Shown: positions 560 through 6,146 of the stretch, piece by piece | Layout of the letters: every line of letters starts with the position of its first letter | How positions within the stretch are numbered: position 1 is the stretch's first letter | Assembly (NCBI GenBank): GCA_964016885.1 | Contig: OZ024743.1 | Coordinates: 13,144,001 to 13,208,000 of the forward strand | Direction: 5' to 3' | DNA: 64,000 nucleotides | From: Eledone cirrhosa | Lineage: Eukaryota | Notes under the pieces: generated by a model | Database searches by the model: none | What the model was told of the DNA's origin: nothing | Seen by the model: only the letters and a program-made list of their open reading frames with translations | Program-made: the position numbers and the translations under genes

Positions 560-1185
560 ATGGACTGCATGCAGGAAAAATGTGAAATCAGGAGTCAGCG
601 AAACTGGTCGAAGATTGAACTAGCGGTTTTGATCAAGGGGTGGACTATGGCTGATGGGTCTCCACCAAGCAAAAAGATGGCGGAGAACCAGAAGAGCCAT
701 GGGTTTCTGAGGACCCTGGTACAGATAGAGAGAAAGAGAAAAGAAATTGAGAAGGCGTATGTCCTCATAGCGCCTCATATGGCGATGCTAAGCCGTGTCC
801 TCAGGGAGGAGAAAACCGAAGGGAGGGATTGAGGAGAGGGAGAGGGAGAGGGAGGAGGAGAAGGAGAGGGAGGGAGAAAAGGAGCCGAAATAAGCCGCTC
901 CAGAAGTATGCTGATGTCGCGCGTGCTGCACCAACAAGGAGAAGGCACGCACATGCCGACGAGATACAGATGGCAGCAGCAGATCAGAAAATTTTTTTAG
1001 TGATGGCAGAGAAGATTGTGGGACAGCTGACCTGGCTGCATCGTCTCCAGAGCCAGGGTCATCCACACCAGCACTCGAGACCACCGCAGTTAAGGGACCC
1101 AGAGTGGCCGCCGCTGACACCAGACCAGGTGTCATACCGACAGCCATTACTGGCACCCCAAAAGTCACACCAGTGCTGCTGCTGA
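560..1185 (+). pseudogene. LINE-a ORF1 (split 560-832 / 829-1185), N-terminal Myb/SANT-like trihelix motif
   Basis: [14 protein letters not shown]...[17 protein letters not shown] aligns by eye with LINE-b ORF1 NWSDNEIDILINTW...RSEQQIQNKLKQIEIAF; frame break in a purine-rich run near 830; ends ...SHQCCC. Confidence 0.65.
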
Positions 1186-4145
1186 ATGTCAGGGGCCTGG
1201 TGAAACTCAGCAACATGAGTAAAATTTCCTATCTGGGAGACTTAGCCATAAGCAATCAAGCACTATGCATGGCACTAACCGAAACGCACCTGACAAGCAG
1301 TATAGCAGATGCAGAAATACATATACCGAAATATACTGTATTTCGTTCGGACAGGAAGGAGAGAACTCATGGTGGGGTTGCTCTGTATATCCGTGAAGAT
1401 GTCACACCAATTGTACTGTTGACACATTCAAACTCAGTCTGTGACACACTGATAATACATATGAAGCAACTACAGACGGTAATATGTGTCACATATCGGC
1501 CGCCCGATGCCCCCAGTCATGAGGGTAAATTTGAGGATAGCCTAAGTAGGATAGAAGAGGTCCTTGACAAACTGGACCAGGGTCTCAACATCCTACTGCT
1601 GGGAGACTTCAACTTACCAAAGGTCAAATGGCCTGAGGGCCACCTCCTCCCTGGAATGACGTCAATAGAACAGAGACAGACGGAATCCCTGCTGGCCCTC
1701 ACACACAGGCTGTTCATGGAGCAAGCAATACTCCTCCCAACAAGAGGCGAAAATGTCCTGGACCTCTGTTTTACAAACAACGAAGTGCTCATCCACAATG
1801 TAAAGGTGACACCAACAATTCTCTCGGATCATAACTTGGTAGAGCTAATGATATGTGGTCCAAGAGAACCAACAGAGACAAAACCACCAAGAAGCTCCGG
1901 GACGCTATCCAGCCTTAACTTCTACGGGGCTGACTGGAAGAAGATTAAGAGTGAAATCCGGAAGCAAACATGGAGTGCAAACATCGCCACACAAGACACT
2001 AACACACAATTTCAACACTTCATGACAACGATACACACCATATGCAAAAAGTGTGTCCCGGAGAAAGAGGCAAACAGACACAAAAATCTTATTCCCAGAG
2101 ATAGGAAAATCCTTATGAGACGTAGAACTAAACTCTCAAACCAGTTGAATAGTCAACAAAACCAAAACAAGAAGGAATACTATTTGAAACGTGCACTACT
2201 TGACACCGAGATTGCACTCAAGCTTTCACATGAGAATGAGAGGGCAAGGAAAGAGAACAGGGCCATAGAAAACATTAAAACAAACCCTAAGGCCTTCTTT
2301 AAATTTGCAAAAGAAACTGCCTCAGTACACTGCAAGATTGGACCACTCTTCCACACGGACGGTTCATTAACCGAAAATCCCCAAGAGATATGTGAAATAC
2401 TGAACGAACAGTACAAAAGTGTATTCACATGTCCACTGAGGCACATGCAAATAACGAAGCCAGAGGAGTTCTTTGATGCCACAACACTACATCAAGAAAT
2501 GGCAACCATCAACCACATAGACATAACGGAGGAGGATGTGGTGTACGCCATTGATGAAATTAGAACAGACTCGGCTGCTGGACCTGATGGATTCCCAGCA
2601 GTTCTCCTAAAAATATGTAAGCGGGCCTTAGCAACTCCACTGAAGATGCTCTTCAGAAGCTCCTTGGCTAGCGGTGTACTACCCAGGGAGCTGAAAGAAG
2701 GCACAATATGCCCTATCCATAAAGGAGGTAGTAGAGCGGAGGCCAAGAACTATAGGCCAGTCTCCCTGACGTCGCATATCAGTAAGGTCATGGAGCGAGT
2801 CGTCAGAAAGAAACTAATCACTTTCCCCGAAGAAAATGACCGCCTGACTAGCACGCAACATGGCTTCCGCCCAGGAAGAAGCTGCCTTACACAGCTGCTA
2901 CATCACTACGACTGGGTACTGAGACAACTACTAGACAGCTCACATGTAGACGTGATATATCTTGACATTGCGAAGGCCTTTGACAAGGTCGACCACGGAA
3001 TGATATGTCACAAACTACACGAACTCGACATAACTGGAAAAGTAGGTGAGTGGCTGCATGGCTTCCTAAGGGACAGAAGCTAGGCAGTCGCAGCAAATGG
3101 GGCCCTCTCGAGGGAAACACCGATAACAAGTGGGGTGCCTCAGGGGACAGTCCTGGGACCACTACTGTTTTTGGTGGCTCTCTCGGACATGCCCTCTGTG
3201 GTGCATGCAACAACATCCCTCACTAGCTATGCTGATGACACTAAGGTAGCACAGGCAATCAAAAACCCGGCTGACGCTGCCCTCTTACAGCAGGATCTGG
3301 ATGCCATATACAGATGGGCGGAAGAAAACAACATGCAGTTTAATGCTGGCAAATTCCAAGCCCTACAATACAAACCTGCAAACATAAACACAAATATAGC
3401 GGAACACAGCTACACAGGACCAGGAGGGACCGATATCCCCGTGTCAAAATCGATACGAGACCTGGGCATAGACATGAGCGATGATGCATCTTTTTCTTCA
3501 CACATCATGAAGGTGGCGACAGCATGTAGACGATTCGCTGGCTGGATCTTGAGGACTTTCCTTACAAGAGATCGAGACACCATGTTGACACTGTGGAGGA
3601 CTTTTGTCCTAAGCCGCCTGGACTACTGCTCCCAGCTGTGGTCACCCCATAGTGTCAAACAAACCACAGAGCTTGAGGCAATCCAGCGAAGCTACACCAA
3701 GAGGATTGCCAAGATGAGGGAGACAAGCTACTGGGAGAGGCTGAAGGAACTGAACCTCTACTCCTTGGAGCGAAGACGGGAGAGATACGCAGTGATCTAC
3801 ATGTGGAAAATCCTGGAGGGACTAGCACCAAACTTTGGCATTGGGAGCTGGACCAACCGTCGAACAGGACGTCACTGTGTAGTGCCAAAGGTCCCGTCTT
3901 CCACATCTAGAATAAGGAGCAGGTATTGCAATAGCCTGGGATTCAAGGGCCCTCAACTCTTCAACAGGCTGCCGAGGCATCTGCGAGACTTGCATGACGT
4001 GGAGGTGGATGTCTTTAAGAAACATCTCGACACCTTGTTATCCAGGATCCCGGATGAGCCCACAGCAAGACACGAGGGAAACCTAAGGACAGCAGCAACA
4101 AACTCCCTCCTACACCAGTGGCCAACCTATACAGGCTGGAGATAA
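993..4145 (+). pseudogene. LINE-a ORF2: apurinic-like endonuclease + reverse transcriptase, one in-frame TAG at 3081-3083
   Basis: APE motifs NVRGL, LTETHL, YRPP, GDFN, LDLCF, SDH; RT motifs NYRPVSLTS, QHGFR, YLDIAKAFDKVDH, PQGTVLGP, YADD; ORFs 1104-3083 and 3135-4145 share one frame, open from the heptamer at 993. Confidence 0.95.
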
Positions 4146-4227
4146 AATGTGTAGCAACAAGGGCGGTGCCCCAGCATGGCCTCAGCTGGATGGCTGAAAC
4201 AGGTAAAAGAGTAAAAGAGTAAAAGAG

Positions 4228-4586
4228 AATATATATATACATATATATATATATATATATACATATATATATATATATATACATATATATATATATATAT
4301 ACATATATATATATATATGTATATATATATATATATATATATGTATATATATATATATATATGTATATATATATATATATATGTATATATATATATATAT
4401 ATGTATATATATATATATATATGTATATATATATATATATATGTATATATATATATATATATATATGTATATATATATATATATATGTATATATATATAT
4501 ATATGTATATATATATATATATGTATATATATATATATATGTATATATATATATATATATATATATATATATATATATATGTATAT
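4228..4586. repeat. (TA)n microsatellite
   Basis: Directly visible. Confidence 0.97.
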
Positions 4587-4996
4587 CGAGTAAGCAGCAA
4601 GTCACACAGCCACAAAACAAAACCACAAAACAAAACCAAACAAACAAAAATTGACCGGTTAATACATTTACATACATCTATATTATTATATATTTGAAAC
4701 CACGTGTTTTCCAACTTGTGAGTACATTTTCCTTTAACTACAAATAATTATTATATACTTTCGTCTTTTCATTAATTTAATTAATTTCAAATAACCAGAA
4801 TATACATATATATATATATATATATATATATATATATATATATATATATATATATATATATATATATATATATATACTCATATCTATATATATACTCTTC
4901 TCACTCACACACAAGAAAAACAAAAAACAAAAATAAATAAAAAAATATATATATATATTGAAATACTTAACTAAAACACACACACTCAAAACTAGA

Positions 4997-6146
4997 ATGG
5001 CTAACCAGCAAAAATCCAAACAGAACTGGTCTGATAATGAAATCGACATTCTAATAAACACATGGCATTGCCTTACCCAAACAGAAGACATAGATGCTTC
5101 ATCTCTGAACGACATTGCTAAACGTACAGTTCAATTTTTGAAAACTCGATCTGAACAACAGATTCAAAATAAATTAAAGCAAATCGAAATTGCTTTTAAA
5201 TTAATCAATAAACATTTGGATAAACTACGGTGTGTTTTTTCTTCGAATGCTGTCCAGCAGCAGCAACAACAACAACAGCAGCTACAACGGCAACAACAAC
5301 AACAGCTACAACAACAACATCAACAACAGCAACAACAACAACAACGACAACAACAGTGTGAACCACTCCTTGATTCATCAACAATGGCCGATCTACTAAA
5401 TGAAACTATTGACCTCCCAGTAGCCTCTGTCTCACAGCATGAAACGCCACATCCTTTCTCTGGCCCAGCAGTCCAATCATCACCACTGCCAACATCTACC
5501 CTGCCTACTACTACTACTACTACTACTACAACATTTTTGTCTACTGCTATGTCAAGGAATTTACCTTCTAATACCGGAACAAGAACTCTCCTTCCCACAG
5601 TCCACAAAGGTCGTCAAATCCTACTCAAACCATCATCTACAAACACACACACCCACAAACCCACCCACTCGAAACCCCATCATTTGCCGCTACTCTCTAC
5701 GCTATAGAATATGTACGGATAGTGGCTGCAAATTCACCCATTTACCTAGGACAAAACGATCTATCCCCACAAACAGCCACCACCATAATACATACTCTAA
5801 TTTAACACCAACACAACCACCAATAACTCAAACAAGGAATCCACAAATCTGCCGCTTTTCCCTGCGAGACAGATTGTGTTTAGACCGGGATTGTCCCTTT
5901 ACCCATCTCCCGGGGACCCGTCGGACAAATGAAAATAAAATTAAAAATAAAAGCAAAAACAAAAACCATAACCTACATAAAAATAACCACTACCACAGTC
6001 ACCAACAGTCTTCTAAACAGGAAACTTCTTCCTCTTTTTTAGCCATAATGAATCTGGCAAAAGAACTGGAAAAAAACATTCGAGCTATCACCCAGCACCA
6101 CCCTCCACTATCACCCCACTGCACAAACTCCCATTGCTGCCATTAA
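4997..6146 (+). pseudogene. LINE-b ORF1: Myb/SANT-like N-terminus, polyQ/polyT linker, two CCCH-type zinc fingers (one frameshift)
   Basis: ATG 4997 MANQQKSKQNWSDNEIDILINTW; second frame has CRYSLRYRICTDSGCKFTH and CRFSLRDRLCLDRDCPFTH; ends ...NSHCCH. Confidence 0.72.

Follow-up and report, generated by a model that had tools for sequence, protein, structure and literature searches.

A conserved in-phase slippery heptamer suggests -1 frameshifting from ORF1 into ORF2 in a clade of LINEs

Two long interspersed nuclear elements (LINEs), here LINE-a and LINE-b, in a stretch of 64,000 nt from Eledone cirrhosa (assembly GCA_964016885.1, contig OZ024743.1, positions 13,144,001-13,208,000, forward strand; hereafter the window) carry the heptamer T_TTT_TTA in phase with their first open reading frame (ORF1), at a point from which the -1 frame runs into the domains of ORF2 for endonuclease (APE) and for reverse transcriptase (RT). 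Comparison of these elements with their relatives leads us to propose, with a probability of roughly 0.83, that ORF2 is made by programmed -1 ribosomal frameshifting at the heptamer, which would give an ORF1-APE-RT fusion protein. An earlier note on this DNA had suggested such frameshifting from the two elements themselves, a suggestion that gains support from the conservation of the heptamer and its phase among related LINEs, from the lack of an AUG or a fused ORF, and from the poor conservation of the AG that follows the site.

Both copies are set in AT microsatellite within the first 9.3 kb of the window, and are arranged as follows (LTR, long terminal repeat).

446-4230, forward strand: LINE-a copy, an APE-RT non-LTR retrotransposon, delimited by blastn against the intact copy L062 and by Pfam; internal ORF1 deletion, approximate 3' end, short tandem-repeat tail.
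560-1185, forward strand: LINE-a ORF1, broken here by a stop at 830-832 and a deletion near 873/883.
993-999, forward strand: LINE-a putative slippery heptamer T_TTT_TTA, in phase with ORF1 (codons ATT TTT TTA GTG).
915-4145, forward strand: LINE-a -1 frame/ORF2, in which a 62-codon linker separates the site from the APE and RT domains; TAG at 3081-3083 in the window copy.
4588-9230, forward strand: LINE-b copy, an APE-RT non-LTR retrotransposon, delimited by blastn against L070 and by Pfam; approximate ends, short tandem-repeat tail.
4997-6146, forward strand: LINE-b ORF1, its frame broken in the window copy by TAG at 5705-5707.
6035-6041, forward strand: LINE-b putative slippery heptamer T_TTT_TTA, in phase with ORF1 (codons TCT TTT TTA GCC), 6 codons past the last -1 stop.
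6017-9142, forward strand: LINE-b -1 frame/ORF2, with a 58-codon linker, then APE and RT; TGA at 6404-6406 in the window copy.

Re-reading the window bore out the geometry that the earlier note had described: both heptamers lie in phase with ORF1 at the positions it gave, and the -1 frame of each element is an APE/RT ORF2 that is free of stops into APE. In LINE-a this frame has a TGA at 912-914 and is open from 915 through the motif LLNVRG (1176-1196), while in LINE-b it opens after the TAA at 6014-6016 and continues through FLLNAQG (6206-6226). The absence of an AUG ahead of the first APE motif likewise held, the first in-frame ATG being at 1215 in LINE-a, past LLNVRG, and at 6458 in LINE-b. 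ORF1 runs on past the heptamer to stops at 1183-1185 and 6144-6146, and its Cys-rich end, also pointed out in the note, is present in both window copies (..HQCCC and ..HCCH) but proved incidental. As a family feature it was rejected, being an other-frame reading of ORF2 Leu codons that is absent from the 13 metagenome lineages described below; P0141, a close relative of the LINE-a ORF1, also terminates in CCS. Regardless of phase, TTTTTTA is common, occurring at 53 places in the window on both strands. Since both window copies are damaged, the argument must rest on their families; the LINE-a ORF1 is also about 325 nt short of that of L062, the CCCH finger being among the missing part.

The relatives that carry this argument were fetched as metagenome loci by APE similarity (a 7-sequence APE alignment) and not by the heptamer, and the best 80 of the 142 confirmed loci were kept. 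With LINE-a and LINE-b these make 82 sequences, 68 of which have a complete APE and entered a quick tree; the 14 removed as too short or broken include L159-L161, which are clade-like and begin inside or past the overlap. LINE-a, LINE-b and 19 loci form one clade of 21 rows (SH-aLRT 90). The heptamer and its phase, which the earlier note had advised checking in related LINEs, are kept in 18 of the 21, and the contigs of L147 and L152 begin downstream of the site. Removal of 3 near-duplicates leaves 15 lineages with a median APE identity of 35%, in 8 clusters at 50%, each of which includes a T_TTT_TTA member. Overall, 12 lineages read T_TTT_TTA at the site, 2 read G_GAT_TTT (loci L142-L144 and L148-L149) and 1 reads G_TTT_TTA. 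The latter two words occupy the corresponding position and are compatible with slippage, although they depart from the canonical pattern X XXY YYZ. Outside the clade, the open region leading into APE holds any of these three words in phase in just one of 49 loci, a locus that lacks a long ORF1. The in-phase, putatively slippery site is a feature of the clade.

The site is conserved at the codon level, beyond what the protein needs. Elsewhere in ORF1 and ORF2 the 15 lineages have 15,222 codons, among which T_TTT_TTA never occurs in phase and G_GAT_TTT does so once; other Phe-Leu pairs in the same lineages are never coded T_TTT_TTA (0/46). One of the two G_GAT_TTT lineages reads Asp-Phe-Arg at the site.

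The second line of evidence is the open -1 frame itself. In 15/15 lineages it is free of stops for 58-222 codons from the site to APE, and its last stop lies 2-26 codons 5' of the site; in an upstream stretch of equal length the same frame is interrupted by 2-16 stops, and 2-10 fall in the tail's +1 frame. When the ORF1 tail was shuffled synonymously, the -1 frame stayed open with P from <0.001 to 0.39 per lineage. The linker that it encodes is rich in Ser, Thr, Pro, Ala and Asn and variable in length, and an ATG before the APE motif is absent in 10/15 lineages, including LINE-a and LINE-b. The ORF1 tail 3' of the site is also conserved in protein relatives, and all 5 of those that span the site in frame keep Phe-Leu. 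Both frames thus appear to be coding from the heptamer on, as expected of a shift site.

The ORF1 in question has a recognizable architecture. In intact LINE-a copies it consists of a Myb/SANT-like N-terminus, an acidic stretch, a CCCH finger, Phe-Leu at the site, a conserved helix and a Pro-rich tail; intact LINE-b copies have a Myb/SANT-like N-terminus that is followed by poly-Gln, a pair of CCCH fingers, the Phe-Leu of the site and a helix. The Myb_DNA-bind_4 match in the LINE-b ORF1 (E 0.0015) falls below the cut-off. A CCCH-type finger is visible in 11 lineages; in 10 of them it lies 42-86 residues upstream of the site, and in the eleventh 180 residues. Past the site the ORF1 of the clade forms an amphipathic-looking helix followed by a Gln/Pro-rich tail. 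Across L062:836-1783, L070:672-1814 and L141-L158, the N-terminus of this ORF1 type resembles Myb/SANT or PHD, and the protein carries between one and three CCCH fingers, frequently of the form HP..C..S....C....C...H.[KR]G. A relative of the LINE-a ORF1 is the Octopus vulgaris protein CAI9723961.1. A database ORF2 protein, P0070, has a CCCH-like finger at its start in frame with APE, and is possibly a natural or mutational ORF1-ORF2 fusion.

Within the E. cirrhosa genome (3.0 Gb searched), at least 345 copies of family a and at least 656 of family b match a 20-base anchor just 3' of the site, and both families are young. ORF1 is intact in 17/30 (a) and 8/30 (b) of the best copies, with lengths of 311-320 and 381-385 aa, respectively. 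The ORF2 frame is unbroken in 7/8 extended copies of family a (1075-1076 codons) and in 1/9 of family b (1045 codons), and 1045 codons from stop to stop is the commonest open frame among 150 family b matches. All 60 best copies agree in where the -1 frame opens, 26 codons 5' of the heptamer in family a and 6 in family b, and none of them has a Met before the first APE motif. Neither a fused ORF nor an AUG, for which the earlier note had advised looking, was found to characterize family a or family b as a whole: of 5 copies with unusually long frames, considered as candidates for a family-level ORF1-ORF2 fusion and rejected, 4 are 5'-truncated or repeat and 1 has an indel downstream of the site. 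The two families, which the note had called divergent, are not independent cases. Their ORF2s are 38% identical and their ORF1 N-terminal segments are alike (E 2e-5), and for this reason their sites are homologous.

The heptamer is present in 30/30 (a) and 29/30 (b) of the top copies, counts that are weak evidence because the copies were chosen for likeness to the query. We therefore replaced these lists with anchor patterns that leave the site free. Hand counts over the first 100 copies of each family then showed TTTTTTA intact in 84 for family a (225 copies matched) and in 97 for family b (641 matched). In such young copies, retention of the heptamer reflects the state of the source element and not selection. 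One hint of selection is that the codon preceding TTT in family a recurs as AAT, CAT or ATT, with the first T of the heptamer kept, and is AAA in 3/100. When G000 was searched with a distant APE, family b came up among the matches listed, and a degenerate site pattern returned families a, b and the older subfamily a' together with unrelated AT-rich matches. No relatives were found in the viral contigs searched.

Under the frameshifting reading, most ribosomes would keep frame at the heptamer and produce a full ORF1 protein (ORF1p) with the conserved helix and the Gln/Pro-rich tail, while a minority would slip on UUU-UUA and continue through the Ser/Thr/Pro/Ala/Asn-rich linker into the endonuclease. 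The resulting fusion would keep the Myb-like domain and the CCCH fingers and be without the C-terminal helix, and a high ratio of ORF1p to ORF2p would be set by slippage, as for Gag versus Gag-Pol.

Several observations weigh against this reading, one of them the lack of a recognizable stimulator at canonical spacing. The earlier note had advised folding the sequence 3' of the heptamers for a stem-loop or pseudoknot. In nested folds, to which the computation was confined (pseudoknots and long-range pairing lying outside it), none was found at canonical spacing in either window element, where the 58-96 nt 3' of the site fold no better than shuffles (z near zero). Neither did nested folds yield a stimulator common to the 15 lineages, whose mean z ranges from -0.4 to -1.0; z is below -2 in 1-4 of the 15, depending on the span that was folded. 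A stem 6 nt downstream of the site in L151, L153, L155 and L158 was rejected since its covariation is not above that of shuffles (8 sequences). Beyond structure, the tree that defines the clade is a quick one with a clade support of SH-aLRT 90, and one of its rows, L146, lacks an intact site and shows no ORF1 within its 217 bases of upstream sequence. Only T_TTT_TTA was predicted beforehand, G_GAT_TTT and G_TTT_TTA having been recognized after looking. The combined value of the synonymous shuffles (log10 P -20) overstates the case because the lineages are related. Finally, an in-frame ATG precedes or coincides with the APE start in 5/15 lineages, and one of the lineages, L153, has a SART1-like TAATG stop-start together with an intact slippery site 157 codons upstream.

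One candidate hairpin, with weak support, bears on the structural question in family a:

1017-1068, forward strand: candidate hairpin, starting 17 nt past the LINE-a heptamer, beyond canonical spacing; z about +0.3.

In families a and a', this hairpin, of 16 pairs, has 4 pairs changed on both sides across 22 related sequences, a value reached by 8/500 shuffles in a test whose structure was drawn from the same sequences. As they stand, the sites would act like a gag-pol shift site but lack the stimulator feature of the canonical signal. Since no downstream structure is held in common, slippage would probably be low-level, or else driven by slow decoding of UUA or by lineage-specific stimulators. 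Stimulator-independent frameshifting when the A-site tRNA is scarce is described, with tRNA-Leu(UAA) named for the HIV-1 site, in the available part of PMC7026636. A broader formulation, which we hold tentatively and at somewhat less than even odds, is that a deep clade of animal LINEs with a CCCH-finger ORF1 may make its replicase only as an ORF1-ORF2 fusion through -1 frameshifting, at a heptamer that has no shared RNA stimulator and would be tuned by the supply of tRNA-Leu(UAA) or by a bound protein; slippage on other heptamers, such as A_AAA_AAC near the ORF1 stop in the outgroup, may be a common route in AUG-less LINEs of the CR1 group.

The strongest rival, though an improbable one, is that ribosomes terminating on ORF1 reinitiate close to its stop, or start there on a non-AUG codon, to translate ORF2, the heptamer having some other or minor role. 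The upstream or adjacent ATGs of 5/15 lineages favor it, as does the TAATG of L153, whose ATG is in the ORF2 frame, and in 15/15 lineages ORF1 stops between -68 and +4 nt from the APE start. Reinitiation is also the route described for the studied LINEs L1 and SART1 in the portion of PMC2881922 available, and L1 ORF2 initiation is called AUG-independent in that of PMC5009743. The earlier note's remark that studied LINEs use reinitiation therefore stands for SART1 and L1, but does not extend to TRE5-A and TRE3-A, for which a frameshift is stated (PMC5911963, as far as its available text goes). Reinitiation leaves unexplained why the codons T TTT TTA are fixed at the site and absent elsewhere, and why the -1 frame is open for 58-222 codons from the site on. 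Nor is any start codon shared: in 7/15 lineages the stretch from the site to APE contains no ATG, CTG or GTG that has a purine at -3, and in LINE-a the ATG past the ORF1 stop is in the ORF1 frame. Reinitiation may nonetheless operate alongside frameshifting in some lineages.

Less probable still is the alternative that the earlier note had itself raised, in which TTTTTTAG serves as a 3' splice acceptor joining an upstream AUG exon to ORF2. A G follows the heptamer in 11/12 T_TTT_TTA lineages, giving a pyrimidine run and AG in both window elements. However, for the most part this G opens a conserved Glu/Asp codon, and AG is not directly 3' of the site in 4/15 lineages (L163, L142, L148 and L145); a nearby CAG in L163 would yield a different phase. 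In subfamily a' (30 loci), a T run of at least 5 is present in 24 copies and is followed by AA in 22 and by AG in 1. Spliced copies are likewise lacking, with 0/200 joined at the AG (the first 100 of 345 in family a and 100 of 656 in family b), and the single foreign junction among the 200 is a 5' truncation into microsatellite.

Slippage of RNA polymerase on the T run, adding one U so that some transcripts hold a fused ORF, is similarly hard to credit. The T6 run is there, and one added base would give the same protein as a -1 shift. If only U-added RNAs made ORF2p and were copied in cis, however, new copies would hold the extra base, whereas by hand count the run is one base longer in 1/100 (a) and 3/100 (b) and one base shorter in 2 and 2, and the G_GAT_TTT lineages have a T4 run only. 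Both this argument and that from spliced copies assume the cis-preference of LINE RNA known from L1. It is also very doubtful that the site is a mere conserved Phe-Leu of the ORF1 helix with the overlap a passive result of codon bias: the relatives do keep Phe-Leu, and Gln/Pro-rich tails yield few -1 stops anyway (hence the highest per-lineage P), but Phe-Leu pairs elsewhere avoid T_TTT_TTA, one lineage has Phe-Arg and still keeps a known slippery word, and ORF2 would be left without a start.

Programmed -1 frameshifting has close parallels in known systems, compared here as far as the cited texts were available. The heptamer and its phase are identical to those at the gag-pol site of HIV-1, U_UUU_UUA (PMC5009743, PMC7026636), where the enzyme ORF also overlaps the structural ORF in the -1 frame, the structural ORF, like ORF1, runs on past the site, and zinc fingers lie upstream of it. 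Unlike HIV-1, the clade consists of non-LTR elements with APE and RT in which no protease was found, the overlap is 36-222 codons, and a stem-loop at HIV-like spacing is absent in both window families. [quoted passage not shown]

Among non-LTR elements, Dictyostelium TRE5-A and TRE3-A have APE and RT as well, and their ORF2 is stated to need a -1 frameshift (PMC5911963). They differ from the clade in being amoebozoan and tRNA-gene-targeting, with an oligo(A) tail and an ORF2 zinc finger, and a slippery site is not named for them in the available text. SART1 and L1 share a bicistronic LINE RNA whose ORF2 is translated in dependence on ORF1, but there ORF2p is separate, where a fusion is predicted here (PMC2881922); a SART1-type UAAUG is present in neither window family and in 1/15 lineages (L153). 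Drosophila HeT-A also uses a frameshift, which unlike that proposed here lies within gag, in an element without reverse transcriptase (PMC5009743). CR1-group LINEs (PMC4120745, PMC13343379) resemble the clade in an ORF2 with APE and RT and a short tandem-repeat tail, and three relatives have weak PHD matches in ORF1. The clade differs from the ORF1 types described for that group in its Myb-like N-terminus and CCCH fingers, the words 'CCCH' and 'Myb' occurring 0 times in the accessible text of PMC4120745. 'Frameshift' occurs 0 times in the accessible text of the CR1-group and gastropod surveys PMC4120745, PMC13343379 and PMC11203168. We found no published description of a conserved slippery site in CR1-group LINEs in a search that lay outside Repbase Reports, most subscription papers and supplements, so that a prior note is possible. 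As far as these sources go, what is new is the site in the present clade, and what was already known is that -1 frameshifting is stated for TRE5-A/TRE3-A.

ORF2 translation has been studied in few LINEs, and the answer there was reinitiation and a separate protein. A codon-fixed shift site kept across a clade at this endonuclease divergence offers a seven-base target for a direct test, and the families, being young with many intact copies, provide practical material. If the frameshifting reading is right, these elements would make a Gag-Pol-like fusion in which RNA-binding fingers are joined to an endonuclease and reverse transcriptase. It would also explain why gene callers start ORF2 inside the endonuclease in 51/117 homologues, and host control of frameshifting could act on these very abundant elements.

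Outgroup LINEs with a long ORF1 in the -1 geometry frequently have an in-phase A_AAA_AAC in the overlap, which in four loci lies 0-5 codons 5' of the ORF1 stop. The loci concerned are L196, L198, L199 and L176 (also L205, L209, L212, L213, L162 and L204). Some canonical heptamer is present in 10/16 such loci, with a per-locus chance of 0.07-0.59, and A_AAA_AAC is possibly a second class of frameshift site.

LINE-a and LINE-b belong with LINEs by an ORF2 with APE and RT (PF14529, PF03372, PF00078) and by many dispersed, often 5'-truncated copies. Pfam finds APE and RT alone in ORF2, with no RNase H or other domain past RT, and the elements end at about 4200-4230 (LINE-a) and 9205-9230 (LINE-b) in repeat tails that are not poly(A). 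The CR1 group (CR1, L2, Crack, Daphne, Kiri, Rex1) is marked by nothing after RT and a tandem-repeat tail, and on the strength of ORF2 motifs and their repeat tails we provisionally place both elements in it, a label to which no tree with reference elements contributed. Their 3' ends (window 4160-4200 and 9160-9205) have short words in common ahead of the repeat tails, GGCGGTGC/GGTGGTGC and CATGGCC, which are likely an RT recognition element held by both.

Contigs of three runs, X1, X2 and X3, whose kind is not on record, show nothing joined at the AG, and a contig of X1 runs uncut across the LINE-a junction; these were not counted as evidence. In X1 the summed contig depth, a poor measure, is about 12,000 at L070:1470-1805 against about 200 on either side, with no such peak in X3. 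The peak spans the second CCCH finger and the site, matches about 5800-6135 of the window, and may reflect an abundant RNA of short length or a piece lying within some other transcript.

Elsewhere in the window, three elements that are presumably Penelope-like lie on the reverse strand at 15466-18154, 31946-33871 and 23924-26887, each with an RT carrying a YRDD motif and a GIY-YIG end. Pfam matches for the 23.9-25.6 kb pieces are the basis of this assignment, the other two elements being 40-60% alike in translation.

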